IMG/VR virus record: IMGVR_UViG_3300027573_000025
Reading direction: 5' to 3' (one strand)
Length of the DNA stretch: 64,000 bases
Source of the DNA: an uncultured virus (IMG/VR IMGVR_UViG_3300027573_000025)
Lineage: Duplodnaviria > Heunggongvirae > Uroviricota > Caudoviricetes
Shown: positions 3,707-55,314 of the stretch, piece after piece
Layout: every line of letters starts with the position of its first letter
Position numbering within the stretch: position 1 is the stretch's first letter
Notes under the pieces: model-generated
Seen by the model: only the letters and a program-made list of their open reading frames with translations
Told to the model about the DNA's origin: nothing
Database searches by the model: none
Position numbers and translations under genes: made by a program

Positions 3707-3821
3707 GGGCGGGGTACTCCTAAGAACCATTACTCGCTTTTAGGCTTGGTTGTCAAGCGTCGGGCACAAGTGCCCTATAATACTTGTTGACTTTCTTTAT
3801 GATGGAGAATAGAAAACACTA

Positions 3822-4547
3822 ATGTTCGACGCGGAATTTATAAAGCGAACCCACGAACCGATCATCAAGGAATTAGAAATCGAGATCAATCGGGCGAGGT
3901 ATAAAATACGATACACGCTAGGATACACAAGCGAACATGACAAAGTAGATGATCTCGTGAGAAAGAACTTAAAAATTTGTTTAGTACGAGATAGGTGGAA
4001 TGACATTCTTGAACAGTATTACGGTCACGCGATAAACTGGCCCATTCAAAAAGAATGGCTAGCTACATTTAACTACGACAACACACGCTTTTCCGGCATT
4101 GATCGTAAATCTCTTAAAGTCCACTTTAACACTTACAGATACCTGCAATCTATTATTCCTTGCGTGTATTCCTATCAGATGGATCAACGCGGATTATTTT
4201 ACTGGCGTGATATTTTGCGAGTTATTCCCAAAAGACCGCGTTGCAGAATATGTGGTGCGCCGCCAACGAGGTGGGATAGAACCGCTCATGGCAAACGTAA
4301 AGGCGATGATAATGACAGATATAACTGCCTCGGCGGAGAATCATACGTTTACGCCGAACGGTTACGGAAATGGAGGGAAGAATATCGAATAAAACAAGAG
4401 AAGAAGAAAGGTATTTGGCAAGCACGAATAGCGGCTCTTGAAGCACAATATAAAATCAAGGAGGACAAAAAATGTCTGCAAGAAACAAGACAACTGATCT
4501 GGAAAATAAGGAAGTATCTACGGAATCCGAACAGCCTCGCTCTCTAG
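3822..4547 (+). CDS. Hypothetical protein (AT-rich moron, CxxC)
   Basis: 241-aa ORF opposite to the late operon; copy-A-specific. Confidence 0.7.
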   Translation: MFDAEFIKRTHEPIIKELEIEINRARYKIRYTLGYTSEHDKVDDLVRKNLKICLVRDRWNDILEQYYGHAINWPIQKEWLATFNYDNTRFSGIDRKSLKVHFNTYRYLQSIIPCVYSYQMDQRGLFYWRDILRVIPKRPRCRICGAPPTRWDRTAHGKRKGDDNDRYNCLGGESYVYAERLRKWREEYRIKQEKKKGIWQARIAALEAQYKIKEDKKCLQETRQLIWKIRKYLRNPNSLAL

Positions 4548-6770: not shown

Positions 6771-7334
6771 TTAGACTTTGGATGGGTTTATTATCTTAGC
6801 TTCCTCGAGGTCTTCACCTAACTTACTAAGGCCATTATCGGGTGTTATTGCCCTAGGTGACTGTCCGGGATAGCTGATAGCTAACTGTGCTGGACCTATC
6901 GTAGTGATATTAAAACCATCACGATATTCAGGTCTTAGACCTTTGAGAGCGAAGATGGCTAATACGTCGCTTTTGCGATTCACCTTCTCAACAATTACCT
7001 GATCTCCCCTTGTCTTAGTGATAGTATGCTCAGTCCCCACAAAGGCCCTAGTAAATACGTCACCCTCAGCATAGTCAGCAAACATTTCACGAGCTTTATT
7101 ATAAGCTTGTTTATAATCCTCAGACTTTTGTATCCATCGATAATGAAACATCCAATGGATATTGCATAACCTAGAACATCCGGTGATTGAGCCACTAGCG
7201 CAATATGCCAGTAAATAACGTCTTTGACGTGGTTTAATGGCCTTGAACTCAGCAATGGCCTTAAATTCTCTGATTAGGTTTAAAGATTCTACTGGTACTG
7301 AGGCAGGTGATGTGAGACTTGCTGAACCATCCAT
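6771..7334 (-). CDS. terS: Terminase small subunit
   Basis: N-terminal HTH, SDVLAIFALKGLRPEYRD motif, upstream of terL. Confidence 0.8.
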   Translation of the reverse strand: MDGSASLTSPASVPVESLNLIREFKAIAEFKAIKPRQRRYLLAYCASGSITGCSRLCNIHWMFHYRWIQKSEDYKQAYNKAREMFADYAEGDVFTRAFVGTEHTITKTRGDQVIVEKVNRKSDVLAIFALKGLRPEYRDGFNITTIGPAQLAISYPGQSPRAITPDNGLSKLGEDLEEAKIINPSKV

Positions 7335-7339
7335 GAGTT

Positions 7340-7720
7340 AAGATTTTAAAGACAGGTACTCCTTAGGTTGGGACGCTGCTCTCACTCCCTCACTCCCTCC
7401 GCTATCCTCTTAAGCCCCCCGAGTAACCCTGCAATCCATTCTATGATGCAGGCCATAGTTGATTCAATGTGATTAGATCAAGATTGAATCGTGAAAGCGT
7501 CGGTCGGTCGGTCGGTCGATTGCGCTGGCCCGGTCAATCACGTTATTAGCAGCTATCCCGCCAGTGGCGCTGTAGGCAATGGCGCTATGGAGTACCTGAG
7601 AGACGCGATCCATGCCTCGTGATTGCCGAATAGTCCCACAAACAACAAAGCGTAGCCCAGATTGCTCCAAGCTACGCTCCATTGCCTCAGGTACTACTAT
7701 GGATTGCTCCATACGCCACT
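7340..7720 (-). ncRNA. Candidate ~380-nt structured RNA in the replication-module slot
   Basis: Two GCAA-tetraloop hairpins, one with G-U pairs that work only on the minus strand; several 8-10 bp long-range helices; TTGACA just upstream. Confidence 0.6.
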
Positions 7721-7747
7721 ACTATTGAATTAAGTAGAGTTTGTCAA
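7719..7747 (-). promoter_or_regulatory. Putative sigma-70 promoter (TTGACA-17-TAGTAG)
   Basis: Perfect -35, weak -10; copy B has TTGACA-17-TAGCGT at the equivalent position upstream of rep. Confidence 0.45.
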
Positions 7748-7780
7748 GCGTTATCCCATCGGGCATTTCTGAGAAAACAA

Positions 7781-7861
7781 GGCATTATTGCCCACTGTAA
7801 TAAATTCAACTACTTAGAGTATCAAGTTATAGGTAGTGTAAATAAATATGGCAGTATTGCC
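7781..7861. promoter_or_regulatory. Pair of GGCA-N4-TGCC palindromes (activator UAS or operators)
   Basis: GGCATTATTGCC 7781-7792 and GGCAGTATTGCC 7850-7861; conserved at 53996 and 54064. Confidence 0.6.
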
Positions 7862-7928
7862 TGAATTCTTTTTCCTTGACTCATAGGGGAATGTAGTGTT
7901 ATTGAGCATTTAGCATTGCGCTGTTATC

Positions 7929-7944
7929 TGGCATGAGTCCTGCT
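7929..7944 (+). promoter_or_regulatory. Sigma-54-type (-24/-12) promoter of the early operon
   Basis: TGGCATGAGTCCTGCT with exact GG-N10-GC spacing; identical in copy B; RBS and ATG follow the predicted start. Confidence 0.65.
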
Positions 7945-7971
7945 TTAATGGGAGTGCAAAGGGGAATGAAA

Positions 7972-11689: not shown

Positions 11690-12029
11690 CCTGAGCCTGT
11701 TGGAGCGGCGCATCATAGCCGCCGAAAAGTTAGGCGAGTCATGGGCTGAGTTACATGCCACTTGGATGCAGCTTGACGACGCAAAGAAGAATGTCCTGGC
11801 CGCATTGATGAATGACCTGGATGACGGCAACATGAGCGAGTCCAAGCTGGAAAGACTCGCTAGAGGGGCCAAGGAATATCAAGACTATTGCCGTAACCTG
11901 GCACTCGCCAAGGGTGCGGAGTTACGGGCGAAGGTGAAATATGAGTGTGCAAAGGACTATTTTGAAGCTGGACGGTCTGCCGAAGCTACAGAACGGGCAA
12001 AATTTACGCATTTTAACCACATACCATAA
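11682..12029 (+). CDS. Helical hypothetical protein (possible recombination mediator)
   Basis: Conserved at 57298-57645; function inferred from context only. Confidence 0.65.
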   Translation: MSNLSLLERRIIAAEKLGESWAELHATWMQLDDAKKNVLAALMNDLDDGNMSESKLERLARGAKEYQDYCRNLALAKGAELRAKVKYECAKDYFEAGRSAEATERAKFTHFNHIP

Positions 12030-12039
12030 GGAGGAAGTC

Positions 12040-12567
12040 ATGCCGATAATTCAAGTAGACGCCGTTACCAAAGAAGCACGCGAGTGGAAGGGTCGTAAGA
12101 AATGGGGAGTCAAGCCGGTCGGCTGGTCGGAATGGCTGAATTTATACTGCGATTTCAAGCCGCAAAAAGGACAGAGTTTCTCGGTCAATATCACCGAGAC
12201 TCAAGGCAAGGACGGTAGGGTATTCAAGGACGCCGAGATCATTGGGCCGGCGCCAGCCGCACCACCGCCGGCGCCACCGGCACAGACACCCTCCGTCGAA
12301 GCGGCATTCAACCAGCTTAAACAACAACACAACGGTAAAATTCCCTGGTCCGACTGGTCTTTAGTGTGCAGAGCCGCCCATGAGCTGGCTTGCTTGCTGG
12401 AGCCTGACGACCAAGGCGAGCATATCTGTGAGCGGTCCAATGCCAGAGCCGCCCTGGTCAATACGGTGATGATAGCTTTCAGTAACGGCAAACTGGAAAC
12501 CCCGATCGAAGCCGGTCCCGTCAGTGATGGTGATGCTGAGGGCAAAGAAGATGACATCCCCTGGTAA
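12040..12567 (+). CDS. Putative single-stranded DNA-binding protein
   Basis: Beta-rich N-terminus, Pro linker, acidic SSB-like tail EDDIPW; AGGAGG RBS. Confidence 0.65.
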   Translation: MPIIQVDAVTKEAREWKGRKKWGVKPVGWSEWLNLYCDFKPQKGQSFSVNITETQGKDGRVFKDAEIIGPAPAAPPPAPPAQTPSVEAAFNQLKQQHNGKIPWSDWSLVCRAAHELACLLEPDDQGEHICERSNARAALVNTVMIAFSNGKLETPIEAGPVSDGDAEGKEDDIPW

Positions 12568-32022: not shown

Positions 32023-32636
32023 CAGTAATTGCCATAACCACCATTCCGCACGTCGATAAAGTCAGTCGACACCTCTATCTCGCGGTTGCCTTCGCCCTCG
32101 TCCACGCCCACGGCTTCATCGAACTCGCGGTAAGCGTCCATCAGGAACTTCTCCGCCATCTTGACATCCTTGCCGAACGAGGCGGCAAGCCGTGACGCCA
32201 AGAGCGCCGCACACGCATTGAATAGCAGCCGGTCCCACCTGTTCACGTCGGTAATGTTGGCTTGGTAAATGATGGCGGCATTCTCTAGGTGGCAGTAAAG
32301 AACGCGCTTGCCTTCGCTGTCCACTTCCCAGGAAAAGACATGGCGCTGATTGGTGTACGGGAAACAGATAAGTCGGCGCACCGCTAGGCAGTCCGATGGT
32401 GTGCGGTAAGCATAAGTCCACTCGCCGAGGCTTTCATTGTTGGCGGTAAGCGACAAAGTTGCCCGGCGCCGCGCACAATTCCAGTCGCGCATTCTTAGGA
32501 CTTGCTCCTTGGTGTTTGCCAGGTGCGCGTTGATTGCCACCACCGTCTTGTTGTTTAGAGAGGTCAACAGCGACGGCACGGAGTCTTGTCCGATAAGTGC
32601 TAGGGCTTGGTTGGCAAGGTCGGTGTCTGTGCTCAT
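32022..32636 (-). CDS. Tail tubular protein A (adaptor)
   Basis: N.AL..IG, WNCA.RR..L, Y..PSDCL motifs. Confidence 0.85.
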   Translation of the reverse strand: MSTDTDLANQALALIGQDSVPSLLTSLNNKTVVAINAHLANTKEQVLRMRDWNCARRRATLSLTANNESLGEWTYAYRTPSDCLAVRRLICFPYTNQRHVFSWEVDSEGKRVLYCHLENAAIIYQANITDVNRWDRLLFNACAALLASRLAASFGKDVKMAEKFLMDAYREFDEAVGVDEGEGNREIEVSTDFIDVRNGGYGNY

Positions 32637-34162
32637 ATAATTACCTTTATCGGTGCGCCGCCGGTGGTTAGGACGTGGATTTGCTTTGCGCTGGAAATAA
32701 CAACCTTTACCGTTGTGCCGCTGTCGGTAAGCACCGTGCAGGCGATGCCATCCGGCGCTATCAAGACTTGCACTTCATCACCATCGGATATGGCGAGTGG
32801 TCCCTGTAACGTGGCGGTAGCGCCGGTAATGGTGTAAGTGCCAGGTTCAAGGTTGAGAGCGCGACCTACCAAAGCCGTTAGGTCGGCGCCGGTAATGGCA
32901 TAAGTCCCGGCTTCCAATTCAAGCGTCCGGTCCGCTATAGGCGTTAATACTGTGCCGGTGACGGTGTAACTGCCAGCCTCTAATTCAAGCGTCCTTGCCG
33001 CCAGTGTCGTTAAGTCAGCGCCAGTGACAACGTAGGTGCCAGCCTCAAGGTTGAGATCATAGGCGGTTGGCGTGCCGCTGTAATCCAACGTGGCGCCCGC
33101 GCCACTGAGAACATAACTCCCCGCTTCAAGATCGAGCGAGTAAGCGTTGAGTGCCGGCTTATCCGGCCTGTACATCGTCGGCGGACGATAGGCAATGCGA
33201 ATCTTCGAGTACGGGTTAGGCCAGTCGTGTTGTAAGAATGGCTTTTGTTTTTCCGGTAGCCGTACCGTGTAGCCGTAAGCCGCGAAGTTTAACGGTCGAG
33301 GGTTTGGATTAGGCCAGTCGGTTTTGGCGAATGGCGCCTGCGCTGAAGGGACATAGACGAAGGTTACGTCAGCGCCAGTGAGAGCATAACTACCAGATTC
33401 GAGGTTAAGTGAATAAGCGTTGACTGTCGCCTTTTCAGATCGAAATACCCCTGGATGGCGAAATTTAATCCTACGCTGTGGGTTGGGCCAATCGTTTTGA
33501 ACAAAGGGCGCCTCGGCTGAAGGAACATAATCGAAGGTTACGTCGGCGCCAGTTGTAGCGTAGGTTCCGGCTTCAAGGTCCAGGGCGCGACCCGCTAATG
33601 GTGTTAAATCCGCCCCGGTGATGGTATAGGTGCCCGCTTCAAGATCGAGACTTCGATCTACGGCGACGGTTAGATCAGCGCCGGTTATAGCATAACTGCC
33701 AGCTTCAAGATTGAGCGCACGCCCGGCTAGTGGGGTAAGGTCGGCGCCAGTAAGCGCATAAGAACCAGATTCGAGGTTTACGGCGCGGCCAGCTAATGGG
33801 GTAAGATCGGCGCCGGTTATCGAATACGAACCGGCTTCAAGTTCAAGCGAATAGACGCTAACGGTCTTTACTGACCGATGCACCTCTGGATGACGGAATG
33901 ATACCCTGCGTTGCGGATTAGGCCATTCGGTTTGAGAAAATGGCGTTGGTACCGATTTAAGCGTCGTCCCAAGTAAATTGGGGATCGGTTGAGCAATGAT
34001 TGCCGCAAACGACGATACGGCAATAATTTTAGTGATTAACGGAAGCCGCTGAGTTTGAGTGCTGACAGCGCCGTAGGTTTTACCTAAAAGGTTCTGAACC
34101 CAACCAGCTTCATTAGCCTGGTTGTATCGGCGCGGTGGCGATTGGTATGAGTTAAATGCCAT
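32633..34162 (-). CDS. Repeat-rich virion protein
   Basis: 11 LxLExGxYxxTGAxxT repeats (22-aa period when tandem) and 4 PFxxxxWPNP motifs. Confidence 0.75.
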   Translation of the reverse strand: MAFNSYQSPPRRYNQANEAGWVQNLLGKTYGAVSTQTQRLPLITKIIAVSSFAAIIAQPIPNLLGTTLKSVPTPFSQTEWPNPQRRVSFRHPEVHRSVKTVSVYSLELEAGSYSITGADLTPLAGRAVNLESGSYALTGADLTPLAGRALNLEAGSYAITGADLTVAVDRSLDLEAGTYTITGADLTPLAGRALDLEAGTYATTGADVTFDYVPSAEAPFVQNDWPNPQRRIKFRHPGVFRSEKATVNAYSLNLESGSYALTGADVTFVYVPSAQAPFAKTDWPNPNPRPLNFAAYGYTVRLPEKQKPFLQHDWPNPYSKIRIAYRPPTMYRPDKPALNAYSLDLEAGSYVLSGAGATLDYSGTPTAYDLNLEAGTYVVTGADLTTLAARTLELEAGSYTVTGTVLTPIADRTLELEAGTYAITGADLTALVGRALNLEPGTYTITGATATLQGPLAISDGDEVQVLIAPDGIACTVLTDSGTTVKVVISSAKQIHVLTTGGAPIKVII

Positions 34163-48126: not shown

Positions 48127-48313
48127 GGGCGGGGTACTCCTAAGAACCATTACTCGCTTTTAGGCTTGCTTGTCAATAGGTTATCGGTTATAAGCGGCTA
48201 TGAACATGATGGTGTTCACAATCAATCGTTTTTAGTTTGCGCGGTCAGACAGCCAGCCCCCAAAGCTGGTGCTGCCATCACAGCGGTCTGGCCGCGCATT
48301 TTCTAGGAGTACC

Positions 48314-49381
48314 ATGGACAAAGTCGACGCGGAAGAATTTACTAAATCACTAGGTCAAATTGTCGGCGGGTCGATGCGGCAGATTGAACTGGCAGACAAA
48401 CTAGGCGTGCCGAAGGCTTTGGGAATGAAGCTGCCCGAATGGGTGAACGAACACCTTGGCGGCTATGCGAAACTCGCCAAGCAGGACCGCATCAAACTGA
48501 TTCTTGAGTACAAGACTGAGGAGAAACTTAGCACGCGCAAGATTGCCGAACGGTTAGGAGTCGGCAAGGATACAGTGCGCCGTGATTTAAATGGCGCAAA
48601 TGCGCCAGCCATAGATGAGGAAAGTGAGTTAGATCAAGGCACCGTTGACGACGAAAATGCAGAGAGTGGCGCAAATGCGCCAGCTACACCCTCCACCAAA
48701 GCCGCCCGCACCCGGACAGCGCACGAACAGATAGCCAAGTTCGCCTTCGATCAGCCAGCGGCGCCGGTGCCGGATGGCGATGCTATTCGCTTGGGTGATT
48801 TCTACGAATTATCGGCAGAGATAAAAGACGACACGGTAGACTTGATTTTTACCGATCCGCCCTACGACGACGAATCGTTAAAGTTGTTTGACCGCATGGG
48901 TGAAGTGGCAGCGCGTATTTTAAAGCCAGGCGCCAGTCTCGTCACCTATCTCGGACACATGCAGATATTGGAGGCCGGTCGACTTCTTTCAAAACATATT
49001 CGCTTTTGGCACCCGCTGTGCTGCATGCACGCCGGACCGTTTGCCAGGATGACCGAGTACGGAGTTATCGAGTCATTTAAGCCGATGCTGTGGTTCGTGA
49101 AGGGGACACGCAGCGACAAACACACATTCATTACCAGCGCCATCAGCGGCGCGCGAGAGAAAGATCATCACGAGTGGCAGCAGGCAGAAAGTGAAGCCGC
49201 TTACTTCATCGAGAATCTTAGTCCAAAAGGCGGACTAGTTGTTGACTTTTTTGCAGGCGGGGGAACGACAATAGTTGCCGCAATGGCACTTGGTCGACTG
49301 GTTATCGGTTACGAGATAGAAAAACGCCACTGGATAAAAGCCAATGACAGAATAAGGAAATCACATGACTCGCAGATTTAA
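48314..49381 (+). CDS. HTH-fused N4/N6 DNA methyltransferase (beta class)
   Basis: LSTRKIAERLGV HTH; DLIFTDPPY before VDFFAGGGTT; AGGAG RBS. Confidence 0.88.
   Translation: MDKVDAEEFTKSLGQIVGGSMRQIELADKLGVPKALGMKLPEWVNEHLGGYAKLAKQDRIKLILEYKTEEKLSTRKIAERLGVGKDTVRRDLNGANAPAIDEESELDQGTVDDENAESGANAPATPSTKAARTRTAHEQIAKFAFDQPAAPVPDGDAIRLGDFYELSAEIKDDTVDLIFTDPPYDDESLKLFDRMGEVAARILKPGASLVTYLGHMQILEAGRLLSKHIRFWHPLCCMHAGPFARMTEYGVIESFKPMLWFVKGTRSDKHTFITSAISGAREKDHHEWQQAESEAAYFIENLSPKGGLVVDFFAGGGTTIVAAMALGRLVIGYEIEKRHWIKANDRIRKSHDSQI
48592..48684. repeat. Two copies of palindrome TGGCGCAAATGCGCCA (18-bp direct repeat)
   Basis: 48592-48607 and 48667-48682. Confidence 0.85.
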
Positions 49382-51729: not shown

Positions 51730-51781
51730 CGGATAACTCCTTGTGCTGCCTGGGGTCTATCTTGTGGCGGAGTTTAGGCAT
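51719..51781 (-). pseudogene. Duplicated terL 5' end (20-aa mini-ORF)
   Basis: MPKLRHKIDPRQ identical to TerL residues 1-12, then diverges to a stop. Confidence 0.75.
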
Positions 51782-52400
51782 GGGACTCCCTCGGACTATA
51801 AGCCCAGGCGATATGCCGAGAAAGCGGGTAGGGTATCTTGGCTATTATGGCCGAGGCTTGCTTGCGCCCTGATGACTTGGAATTACCACGGCGCATTGGG
51901 GTGTTATTCCATCCAAACGATCCGCCATATCCGCCAAGACCATCCTGCACGGACTTAAACTCCCGCTGACCCATTGGCATCAACGCCGGCACATCCCCCC
52001 ACAAATAAAAACTCCCGTAATGCCACTTCGCCCTTCCCACCCACTTCTGCGCACCCCGGACATTCTCCACCACCATCGGTATCCTATGCCCAGCCGCATC
52101 GCTCGCCTCACACTGAATCCGAAAGCACGCCTCGAATAAGCTATTATCGGGAGGCGGCAACGCCTTGGCCCTACTCCACGGCATAGCCCTATAGCTATAC
52201 CCCTGACACGGTGGACTCGCCACTATCAACGCGACATCCTTGAACTGTCTCCCATGAAGCGTCATCACGTCCTGAATCACCAACTGCCCAGGATACTCCC
52301 TACGCTCAATGTCGAACCCAACCACATCGAAGCCCTCAGCCAGCAAACCCTCTGTCCAGCCCCCCAACCCACAGAATAAGTCAATGGCTAACGGCTTCAT
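51774..52400 (-). CDS. Short C5 cytosine DNA methyltransferase-like protein
   Basis: DLFCGLGG, SPPCQ and VENV motifs. Confidence 0.85.
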   Translation of the reverse strand: MKPLAIDLFCGLGGWTEGLLAEGFDVVGFDIERREYPGQLVIQDVMTLHGRQFKDVALIVASPPCQGYSYRAMPWSRAKALPPPDNSLFEACFRIQCEASDAAGHRIPMVVENVRGAQKWVGRAKWHYGSFYLWGDVPALMPMGQREFKSVQDGLGGYGGSFGWNNTPMRRGNSKSSGRKQASAIIAKIPYPLSRHIAWAYSPRESHA

Positions 52401-53262: not shown

Positions 53263-53856
53263 TCAGTGTCCATTACCACGGCCAAGCCCGGCAATGTCTA
53301 AAATGCTCGCAGCCGGCGCAAGGTCCTTGTTTTGTTCTATGATGCTATCCATGTATTTAAGTGCTTCGCATTTCTGTCTTGGGGGTTTATTCCTACTTAC
53401 CTGCTCCGAGTCTTCATTCTTAATTGCCAATTTAATTGGCTCTTCGCTCTGAGACTTAGGTTTAATTAATGGTTTATATGATGGTTCTGTGGTCGTTTGG
53501 CGACCCACCCTTGGGTCGGCTGGCGACCCACCCCCGGTCACTTGGCGACCCACCCCCCCCGCACTGCGTTGGACTGGTAGGCAGTCACTGGCGAGTATAT
53601 TGAGGTGATAAACGTGAGGCAATTGCACGCCATCCTTGAAACGTTCCTGGATAGTCAACAGATCCAATGCCACTAACTTCTTAATATTCTCTTTAATGGC
53701 AGTTCTGGACAGCTCGCAATGCTGCTCCATGTAACGATGAGACGGCCAACATACGCCATCGTCGTTGGCATTATCGGCAAGCTTGATAAGTACAAGCTTG
53801 GCTGAGGCACTGCCGACCTTCTGCTCGAATGCCCAGTTTATCGCTCGAATGCTCAT
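53263..53856 (-). CDS. Phage replication initiator, winged-HTH type
   Basis: MSIRAINWA...KLVLIKLADNANDDGVCWPS is a typical phage Rep N-terminus; internal iterons. Confidence 0.88.
   Translation of the reverse strand: MSIRAINWAFEQKVGSASAKLVLIKLADNANDDGVCWPSHRYMEQHCELSRTAIKENIKKLVALDLLTIQERFKDGVQLPHVYHLNILASDCLPVQRSAGGVGRQVTGGGSPADPRVGRQTTTEPSYKPLIKPKSQSEEPIKLAIKNEDSEQVSRNKPPRQKCEALKYMDSIIEQNKDLAPAASILDIAGLGRGNGH
53461..53555. repeat. Iterons and AT-rich tract, probable replication origin within rep
   Basis: TGGCGACCCACCC at 53498, 53521 and 53543 (22-23 bp period) next to TTTAATTAAT. Confidence 0.8.
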
Positions 53857-53995
53857 TTTAACCCCCTGCAAGGTTAGGCAGAGGGCGGGAGTGCAGGCTC
53901 CCGCCATGCCATTGATATTACTGACCCCACAATACGCTAGTTTTATCGCTCTCTAATGTCAACCATAAATTCATCGGGCATTCCTGAGAAAACAA

Positions 53996-54075
53996 GGCAT
54001 TATTGCCTGACTCAATAATATCGCATACTTACAAGCCAAGTGATAGCTAGTGCAAATAAACATGGCACTATTGCC
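53996..54075. promoter_or_regulatory. Pair of GGCA-N4-TGCC palindromes (copy B)
   Basis: 53996-54007 and 54064-54075. Confidence 0.6.
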
Positions 54076-54142
54076 TGAATTTCCTTGACTGCTACGCTAT
54101 GTGAATGTAATGTTATTGCGCACTTAGACTTGCGCTGTTATC

Positions 54143-54366: not shown

Positions 54367-54420
54367 CACCAACGTGCTCAACACCCGCTGCCAAGCGGGA
54401 GAATGGAAAGGGAGAAAGAA

Positions 54421-55314
54421 ATGGATGTTTACAAAATGATAACGGACAGAGTAGTCGAGTCATTAGAGAAAGGCGCCGTACCTTGGCAAAAACCGTGGGC
54501 TGGCGGCAAGTCTGGAATGCCTCGTAATTTTGTCTCGACAAAGGCATATCGTGGTATCAATGTTTTCTTACTATCCTACACTTCGCATTGCTTAGGATAC
54601 CAGTCCCCGTTTTGGGTGTCGTATAAGCAAGCCGCAAGTCTCGGTGGTAATGTCCGCAAAGGTGAAAAGTCTCAATGTCCTGTCGTGTTCTTTAGTACCA
54701 TTGAGAAGAAAGAAGTTAACGAAGACGGTGAACATGATACCTTTGCAATGCTTCGCTACACTCCAATGTTCAACACGGACCAATGCGAAGGTCTCAAGGT
54801 TCCAGACTTGAGTGAAGCACCCAAGAAAGACCATGAGAAGATAGACTCAGCGGAAAAGATAGTCGCCGCCATGCCATGCGCGCCAACCATCAATGTAAGA
54901 CCGTCTAACAAAGCATTTTACTCGCCGCTTAATGACTCGGTTACGGTTCCCGAACTTGGTCAATTCGATAACCCTGAATTGTTCTATGCGACGTTATTCC
55001 ATGAACTAGGGCATAGCACTGGGCATGAGACGCGGCTGAACCGTGACTTGAACAACCAACATGGGTTTGGTTCCCATGAGTATAGCAAAGAAGAGCTAGT
55101 CGCTGAGTTCTGCGCATCTTACCTATGCGGCATCGCTGGCATTGAGAACCGCACTCTTGAGAACCAAGCCGCTTACATCAATTGTTGGTTGACCATCCTT
55201 AAAGACCAGAAGCAAAAGAAATGGTTGACATGGGCGGCGTCTCAAGCACAAAAAGCGGCTGACTATATTCAAGGCATAACTGCGGTCAAGACTGATGAGC
55301 AGATAGCCGCTTAG
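54421..55314 (+). CDS. ardC: ArdC-family antirestriction / ssDNA-binding protein
   Basis: PWQKPW, YRGIN, VRKGEK, FHELGHSTG and EELVAE motifs. Confidence 0.9.
   Translation: MDVYKMITDRVVESLEKGAVPWQKPWAGGKSGMPRNFVSTKAYRGINVFLLSYTSHCLGYQSPFWVSYKQAASLGGNVRKGEKSQCPVVFFSTIEKKEVNEDGEHDTFAMLRYTPMFNTDQCEGLKVPDLSEAPKKDHEKIDSAEKIVAAMPCAPTINVRPSNKAFYSPLNDSVTVPELGQFDNPELFYATLFHELGHSTGHETRLNRDLNNQHGFGSHEYSKEELVAEFCASYLCGIAGIENRTLENQAAYINCWLTILKDQKQKKWLTWAASQAQKAADYIQGITAVKTDEQIAA

Follow-up and report, generated by a model that had tools for sequence, protein, structure and literature searches.

What is the function of a stretch of some 370 nucleotides (nt) that lies, in one of two related phage genomes, where the other carries a replication initiator? 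The question is raised by 64,000 nt of DNA (hereafter the window) from the uncultured tailed-phage record IMGVR_UViG_3300027573_000025, in which two related podovirus-like genomes lie in tandem (copy A, approx. 340-44,750, and copy B, from approx. 44,750). In copy B, a leftward promoter is followed by the gene of an O-like replication initiator (Rep, phrog_1032 and PF13730) with three 22-nt iterons inside it (53491-53557), the stop codon of which abuts the start of the small terminase subunit gene terS. In copy A the 370-nt element takes the place of Rep and iterons, as an initial annotation of the sequence had recognized. That annotation proposed a protein-free, RNA-primed origin of replication, with a late antiterminator or a packaging RNA as alternatives. 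The analysis reported here confirms the element as a real, discrete and highly structured RNA of about 370 nt behind a predicted promoter. As for its function, we give about half of our confidence to a riboregulatory leader of the terminase/late operon, most likely controlling transcription or translation into terS.

The helices, hairpins, repeats, tracts and TTGACA box of the initial annotation were all found again at their positions on recomputation and with Tandem Repeats Finder, and its structured minus-strand RNA behind a promoter-like box was borne out by covariation, the check it had called for, and by invariant G-U pairs. For an alignment of six sequences, RNAalifold predicted 95 pairs, of which 27 show compensatory changes; 96.3% of the alignment cells pair. 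The 27 pairs changed on both sides compare with 10.4 ± 2.3 in shuffles (0 of 500 reach 27), and only 1-5 pairs show both-side changes in a control in which the partners were slid by 1-3 columns. The covarying helices are P1, P2, P3-P5, P6, P7 and short helices flanking the (CGAC)5 and purine tracts, the last of which close a 3' domain made up of P6 and P7 (Table 1). Both-side changes affect 3 of the 6 pairs of P1 (helix 1 of the consensus), whose loop is GCAA in five variants and GAAA in one, 8 of the 25 pairs of P2 (helix 2), 7 pairs in the P3-P5 domain (helices 3-6, 97-100% paired) and all 3 pairs of P6 (helix 12). Several G-U pairs are invariant in all six sequences, including alignment columns 44:87 and 50:81 of P2, which identifies the minus strand as the one that is read, because the opposite strand would have A-C mismatches in their place. 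The Rfam search that had also been proposed brought no family: cmscan returned no match at gathering score over the whole window and, at E-values up to 10 in region 7200-7950, two irrelevant eukaryotic families only. The RNA belongs to no catalogued family.

The borders of this RNA coincide with the predicted +1 and the start of terS, and contigs from other sequencing runs, which otherwise brought known variants only, part from the window exactly at 7712 and 7342 (loose ends). Upstream, the -35-like box is kept among variants despite unrelated spacer sequences, and the TA of a weak -10-like hexamer lies 18-19 nt past it in five of six variants (GA in L087). The elements of the window, L113 and L087 are 95.7% identical next to TerS proteins with no more than about 43% identity and behind promoter spacers that are unrelated. 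Because the borders are exact and the flanks unrelated, the element is best described as a cassette that starts at the +1 and stops short of the first late gene. Between the element and terS (7343 to 7334) a terminator-like site was not found, the only such sites on the minus strand being at 7793-7780, upstream of the promoter, and at 7230-7218, inside terS.

Within the RNA, boxes A and C are identical and each can pair with box B; because the same loop bases are used, the pairings B:A and B:C are mutually exclusive. The 8-mer AGTACCTG or its complement occurs three times inside the element, against 1.03 occurrences expected in the whole 64 kb, and no other box site in target orientation was found on the transcribed strands of the window. 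Duplex energies within a lineage are -17.7 to -22.3 kcal/mol for B:A and -17.0 to -20.1 kcal/mol for B:C, and at most 1 of 300 shuffled loops matches the energy of the box-B duplex. Two specificity groups can be told apart among the variants: the window type and L021 have AGUACCUG, whereas L014 and L178 have AGUCCGUG. All three boxes have changed together in the latter two, and duplexes across the groups reach only -7.6 to -12.6 kcal/mol. The AAGGAGU of box C is invariant in the alignment, and its AAGGAG is followed by an ATG after 13-15 nt in four of six variants. In L014 a small open reading frame (ORF) between element and terS (3760-3882) starts 13 nt after AAGGAG and reads like a signal peptide or lipoprotein leader (MRLTAILTLLLVLSSSS...).

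An additional helix, P8, is proposed between (CGAC)5 and the purine tract (NGAG)5, in which Tandem Repeats Finder reports 2.4 copies of GGGAGUGA (7381-7399). The covarying pairs that flank it (columns 210:390, 211:389, 214:385 and 237:362) set (CGAC)5 antiparallel to GGAG-GGAG-UGAG-GGAG-UGAG. In this register each unit of the interior would form C:G pairs around tandem G.A, an arrangement that we infer only. The predicted duplex energy clearly exceeds that of shuffled purine strands in two of the six sequences (0 of 300), with 12, 35, 37 and 37 of 300 shuffles as good in the others. A further contact, CUAUGG (7453-7458) with CCUAAG (7362-7367), is tentatively read from the alignment, in which its counterparts are CUUGG/CCAAG in L178 and CUUGCC/GGUAAG in L014; the CCUAAG/UAUGG pair is possibly 11-nt-receptor-like.

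The element also contains a 79-codon ORF, conservation of which as a protein would, by the initial annotation, have spoken against its proposal. Variable columns amount to 15 of 45, 14 of 44 and 10 of 45 at the three codon positions, without third-position excess; synonymous changes in three close variants (4 of 11, 3 of 10 and 1 of 7) are at the level of the random expectation of 0.24; the N-terminal third lies in different frames in different lineages; and no codon position varies within the 22 nt of (CGAC)5GC. For these reasons the ORF is not a conserved protein. Its product has no Pfam, PHROG or NCBIfam match (these scans covered 76 proteins of both copies, 63 and 34 proteins, respectively), and its translation occurs in a database of 5.8 billion protein sequences as 4 clusters, all of the window type. 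The frame is nevertheless open in all four lineages known, with no stops as against 2-7 stops in the other two frames, from an AUG that lies 30-31 nt past the -35-like box, at the predicted +1. The distances from AUG to (CGAC)5 are 194, 197, 200 and 197 nt, all 2 modulo 3, so that the lengths differ by multiples of 3, a length pattern with a chance, taken alone, of about 1 in 27. In L178 a pair of indels (-1/+1) shifts the frame by one base ahead of P3 and restores it within P4. What is found is an upstream ORF (uORF) that is open at a fixed place while its peptide is free to vary, as in uORF-dependent attenuators, a hint, read from these sequences, that translation rather than the peptide may be under selection.

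How widely such elements occur was followed by several searches. Identical copies of A or B are present in several viral contigs. Anchoring the search on the large terminase subunit TerL yielded 43 related viral loci, with the element in L021 (74% over 401 nt) and L014 (72% over 340 nt), and with RepB only in copy B's own record. A pattern scan of metagenomes gave at least 117 stretches and added L113/L161 and L087 (95.7% over 370 nt) as well as L140 (72%); the true homologues among the matches listed are L113, L161, L087, L071, L074 and L140, and the remaining stretches were rejected as (CGAC)n microsatellites. A viral scan added L178, of the L140 type, and two further viral pattern scans returned known lineages only. 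The elements thus collected form four divergent lineages (72-96% identity), namely the window type with L113/L161 and L087, L021, L014, and L140/L178. A profile search (nhmmer) of 191 loci added only L025, as a partial match to the 3' domain alone. At L025:2418-2585, 2.4 kb upstream of a terL with 43% identity, the (CGAC)n/hairpin/(NGAG)n domain stands alone, joined to a different 5' structured region; both tracts are kept, with different Watson-Crick flanks and an unchanged end-to-end register. In run X10 there is a contig in which the window's 3' end seems to follow an L025-like upstream part. A pattern with two anchors found 23 stretches, of which 8 are known lineages or L025 and 14 were set aside, as judged by eye, as coding sequence of GC-rich phages. 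The remaining one, L207:2270-2675 in a GC-rich 48-kb phage contig, is a gene-free stretch of 400 nt with several GNRA-looped hairpins and with short CGACCGACGC / GCGGAGGGAG motifs at the right spacing, which may be a distant relative or chance.

The element family is rare. With blastn, the region had no counterpart in the GenBank phage collection, tblastn of TerL against GenBank phages gave only a 25% partial match to a Pelagibacter phage, and the nearest virus record (G001) is without the element region altogether. In genome contigs, TerL has only relatives of 36-43% identity, in metagenome-assembled genomes of NC10, Binatia and Nitrospira; in these genomes, and in samples of 401 and 251 genomes taken from two of the phyla concerned, the element gave only chance matches of 26-41 nt. 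RepB was not found in four element-bearing viral records, a result of little weight, as all four are fragments of 12-53% completeness.

The genes that follow the element are informative. In the window, L113/L087, L021 and L014 it stands directly upstream of terS, and leftward of the conserved regulatory block that separates it from the early genes the window continues with terS, terL and then, around the circle, the entire structural and lysis operon. In L191 the element precedes a 551-aa protein and then a portal gene (phrog_1216), with no terS between. This 551-aa protein has 781 relatives, the best 120 of which include 11 with the name terminase large subunit and 10 with PF03237; it has no similarity to the TerL of the window, and the portal is likewise unrelated to that of the window. 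What relatives carry in the slot before terS differs: in L011 and L013 both Rep and the element are missing and a different, C-rich leader is present, that of L013 with an 82-aa ORF, and L016 has none of these. The C-rich leader (L013:1340-1585 and L011:800-1024, approx. 130-190 nt) is a second conserved non-coding leader upstream of terS and behind a TTGACA box, unrelated to the element. Rep occupies one of the eight slot types seen. Since related phages carry other cargo, the slot is variable and Rep is the exception.

On the reading as a riboregulatory leader, B:C pairing would hide the ribosome-binding region of the first late gene and/or favour premature termination, and B:A pairing would relieve this block. 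The domain bearing box B may act in cis; were it processed, it might also act in trans, on co-infecting genomes that share its specificity. The leaderless ORF would span P1-P5 and (CGAC)5 and stop at P6, and passage of the ribosome may choose between the pairings or shield the C-rich tract from Rho. Attenuation of this uORF-dependent, Rho-mediated type is described in the part of PMC12360218 that concerns it.

Several points weigh against this reading. The promoter, the +1 and read-through into terS are predicted from sequence, and a consensus scan missed the leftward promoter, its -10 hexamer being weak. The covariation comes from just four independent lineages, and a single alignment served both to derive the consensus structure and to count its pairs. 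Folding energy of the single sequence is unremarkable and not exceptional: the minus strand folds at -133.1 kcal/mol (z -1.60, 5 of 100 shuffles as good), and the plus strand has a z of -1.67. In the window and L021 the distance between AAGGAG and the ATG of terS is 24 nt and 41 nt, more than a Shine-Dalgarno sequence would normally allow. Leaderless initiation should be impeded by the pairing of the AUG within P1, and a variant of the ORF in the database (P0004) begins 5 codons further on. The element is not indispensable for late expression, because copy B and relatives run a near-identical late operon without the RNA. Finally, cmscan found no homology to the C4/CI RNAs of Rfam, C4 being presumably the model name for the P4 CI and P1 c4 RNAs.

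Likeness to known systems is nevertheless found at the level of principle. In phage P4, as described in the pertinent part of PMC4825925, the CI RNA (seqB) has two pairing partners within one leader, seqA on its upstream side and seqC on its downstream side, and pairing leads to premature termination. As far as that description goes, the element shares with it an antisense box in a stem-loop of an untranslated leader, complementary to two repeats of the same transcript, one upstream and one downstream; it further shares a leader that stands behind a promoter and heads an operon, and specificity variants with concerted changes. An antisense box facing two target repeats in one transcript, the hallmark of P4 CI and P1 c4, is thus present here. 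Unlike P4 CI, however, the element is about five times larger with extra domains, has no sequence or covariance-model similarity to it, and precedes terminase/late genes, whereas P4 CI controls replication genes. Translated ORFs play a role in the P4 leader. In P1, according to the portion of PMC8198154 devoted to the immI operon (c4-icd-ant), c4 is encoded upstream in the same operon and controls icd-ant. Within the limits of that account, P1/P7 c4 and the element have in common a regulator RNA upstream of its targets in one operon and, as far as the Shine-Dalgarno-like AAGGAG under box C may serve as such, a target that overlaps a ribosome-binding region; they differ in that there is no homology, the spacing from box C to ATG is irregular in the element (13-41 nt), and no antirepressor lies downstream. 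The c4 RNAs of P1 and P7 form heteroimmune specificity pairs. All in all, the element looks like a new, much larger variant of the antisense-leader principle of P4 and P1.

Late control had been among the alternatives of the initial annotation, and this part of it stood up better than the origin, being nearer the evidence, whereas its antiterminator form found no counterpart. With the lambda late leader (PR'-6S RNA-tR' with Q) and HK022 put the element shares a host-type promoter and a leader heading a very long late operon. It differs from the former in having no terminator-like site at the leader end and no Q-like protein recognized in Pfam or PHROGs, from HK022 put in having no similarity to it, and from both in that copy B has the same late operon but no such leader. 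A survey of IMG/VR (PMC10690425) mentions candidate structured RNAs that stand before the large-terminase genes of phages. By the description given in that part of the survey, and by description only, these are the same kind of object, an uncharacterized conserved fold immediately before terminase genes of uncultured phages.

The other explanations of the element make different use of the same observations. It is unlikely, though worth serious consideration, that the RNA is a stable trans-acting or structural non-coding RNA carried as accessory cargo, such as an anti-defence decoy, a packaging cofactor like phi29 pRNA or a host-factor sponge, with the place before terS being merely a convenient, strongly expressed slot. 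The large complex fold with several junctions, GNRA loops, the possible CCUAAG/UAUGG receptor-like pair and two long-range pairings would fit such a role, and so would the near identity of elements beside divergent TerS proteins and unrelated spacers, the other cargo in the slot of relatives and the recurrence of the 3' domain alone in L025. A free-standing RNA is, however, at odds with the lack of a terminator-like site before terS and with a three-box complementarity that is internal and has no other targets on the transcribed strands of the window. Enrichment of GGA motifs is just mild (12 vs 7.7 expected), and the idea of a CsrA sponge was dropped on this count. A packaging RNA of the phi29 type, the remaining alternative of the initial annotation, did not hold, as neither pRNA nor any other Rfam family was matched and the phage has an ordinary pair of terS (phrog_4044) and terL (phrog_2). 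Even less probable, and in our view only a slight chance, is that the sequence acts as a DNA packaging site, cos or pac with TerS-binding repeats. Its position immediately upstream of terS recalls lambda, where cosB lies upstream of terS, and a 10-bp box is repeated in it in both direct and inverted orientation, beside short tandem repeats. Compensatory changes in at least seven helices and G-U pairs invariant on one strand are nevertheless signatures of RNA, 95.7%-identical elements stand beside TerS proteins sharing only about 43%, and the element also occurs before terL with no terS between. That it is chiefly a gene for a leaderless protein of 76-81 aa, whose DNA happens to fold, is very improbable: a frame that begins with an AUG at the predicted +1 and stays open in each of the four lineages, together with the frame-restoring indels of L178, would agree with it, but the lack of third-position excess, the random level of synonymous changes, the differing frames of the N-terminal third, the (CGAC)5GC invariant at all codon positions, the lack of a family match and the mere 4 protein clusters would not.

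The origin proposed in the initial annotation is likewise improbable in the light of these data. It would be a Rep-independent origin of the ColE1 type, with a G-rich 3' hybrid, an RNase H primer and host PolI and PriA, that replaces the Rep and iterons of copy B. The wider claim of a protein-free replication module of a tailed phage, interchangeable with Rep/iterons, whose place at the head of the operon would couple replication to packaging, we consider no less doubtful. In favour of such an origin stand the slot and promoter shared with the Rep and iterons of copy B, and the G-rich tracts of a folded, promoter-driven transcript of several hundred nt with alternative pairings, as in RNA II, in which three segments (alpha, beta and gamma) pair alternatively. 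The statement that copy A lacks a recognizable initiator, helicase, primase, polymerase or integrase also proved correct for the ORFs scanned, none of which matched such a family in Pfam, PHROGs or NCBIfam, and the exonuclease, the VRR-NUC nuclease and a protein with an SSB-like tip (...DDIPW) would allow a phage that leans on host replication. Many small ORFs of copy A have, on the other hand, no family assignment and may hide an initiator. Against the origin, moreover, the element precedes terminase genes in all four lineages, including a phage with unrelated terL and portal; it thereby tracks the terminase rather than replication or early genes in two unrelated backbones, and lies upstream of terS/terL instead of within a replication or maintenance module as a ColE1-type replicon would. 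Rep is the exception among slot contents, and the slots of L011, L013 and L016 are without Rep and without the element. The G-rich purine tract, from which an R-loop was to arise, is predicted to be bound up in an internal helix with (CGAC)5, the flanks of which covary. Nor was there an Rfam RNAI match or, within 7343-7712, a plus-strand promoter-like site for an RNA I-like antisense transcript, the latter by a consensus scan that is a weak test.

Table 1. Positions of the element, its parts and the neighbouring features in the window
Feature	Position	Strand	Remarks
-35-like box TTGACA	7742..7747	-	leftward promoter; TTGACA/TTGACT in 5 of 6 aligned variants, TTGCAA in L014
Weak -10-like hexamer TAGTAG	7719..7724	-	only TA kept among variants; putative, read from the alignment
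RNA module	7343..7712	-	predicted +1 A7712, 3' border about 7343; from homologue ends and covariation
79-codon ORF	7473..7712	-	from 5'-terminal AUG; open, peptide not conserved
P1 UAUGGA-GCAA-UCCAUA	7698..7713	-	5'-terminal hairpin, GNRA loop, contains AUG
Box A AGUACCUGAG	7686..7695	-	complementary to box B
P2	7642..7686	-	long hairpin, GCAA loop, invariant G-U pairs; includes hairpin 7649-7678
P3	7618-7629 with 7530-7542	-	CAAUCACG faces CGUGAUUG
P3-P4-P5 domain	7530..7629	-	three-way junction; most conserved part
Box B CUCAGGUACUCC	7589..7600	-	in 19-nt apical loop of P4; antisense determinant; includes CUCAGGUACU, facing box A
(CGAC)5	7499..7518	-	invariant in all lineages; 5' strand of proposed helix P8
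P6	7461..7490	-	variable hairpin; ORF stop codon in or beside it
P7	7428..7452	-	hairpin; helix 13, 2 of 9 pairs changed on both sides, 96% paired
GGGGGG tract	7415-7420		
Purine tract (NGAG)5, GGAGGGAGUGAGGGAGUGAG	7381..7400	-	3' strand of proposed P8
Box C GGAGUACCUG	7353..7364	-	overlaps Shine-Dalgarno-like AAGGAG; 7353-7362 complementary to box B
terS	6771..7334	-	first gene after element; phrog_4044 at 1e-18
Operator-like palindromes GGCA-N4-TGCC	7781-7792 (GGCATTATTGCC) and 7850-7861 (GGCAGTATTGCC)		between divergent promoters; putative, read from sequence
O-like replication initiator, copy B	53263..53856 (also given to 53907)	-	phrog_1032 3.4e-28, PF13730 1.2e-10

The genomic setting offers some further observations. 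Copies A and B lie head to tail in one contig, with shared blocks 77-97% identical and different cargo, and long repeats between them are spaced by 44,414-46,284 nt; the 64,000-nt stretch is contained in a 144,632-nt record of one sequencing run. The arrangement could be tandem prophages, a concatemer, or an assembler passing through strain variants. Family scans found in each copy a T7-type portal (PF12236), tail tube proteins, terS (phrog_4044) and terL (phrog_2 for the TerL of the window). The regulatory block sits between divergent promoters, with about 5 kb of early genes rightward of it. Its palindrome pair is kept in copy B at 53995-54006 and about 54064-54078, and the palindrome at 7781-7792, which has a U-rich tail on the minus strand, receives a terminator-like score there as well. 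The shared early protein at 11941-12567 (plus strand), which has no family match, has a C-terminal ...EDDIPW that resembles the acidic tip of bacterial SSB; it adjoins the exonuclease (phrog_10477) and the VRR-NUC nuclease, which suggests a recombination module. A 241-aa ORF specific to copy A (3822-4547) had no match in Pfam, PHROGs, NCBIfam or the ESM Atlas, and its own structural model has a pLDDT (predicted local distance difference test) of 0.46. A 45-nt unit occurs 11 times, mostly with 66-nt spacing, at 32810-33844 (minus strand) within ORF 32633-34162, which encodes a 509-aa structural protein. Copy B alone encodes a helix-turn-helix protein with an N6/N4 methylase, a C5 methylase fragment-like ORF and an ArdC-like antirestriction protein (48269-49381, 51774-52400 and 54403-55314), at the places of which copy A has other small ORFs.

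If the element is indeed a riboregulatory leader, an RNA-only device would set packaging and late gene expression in uncultured phages of sediment and groundwater. Such a device would unite three mechanisms that are elsewhere known one by one: an antisense loop in the style of P4 and P1, with exchangeable specificity, a leaderless uORF whose frame would be maintained solely so that it is translated, and a large scaffold that includes the unusual invariant (CGAC)5 / (NGAG)5 element. The slot held by Rep in copy B is a cargo slot in these phages, which cautions against assigning function from position alone. The element also provides a well-resolved case for the growing, unexplained class of folded RNAs before terminase genes and, if read correctly, would bear on RNA-based immunity beyond P4 and P1.

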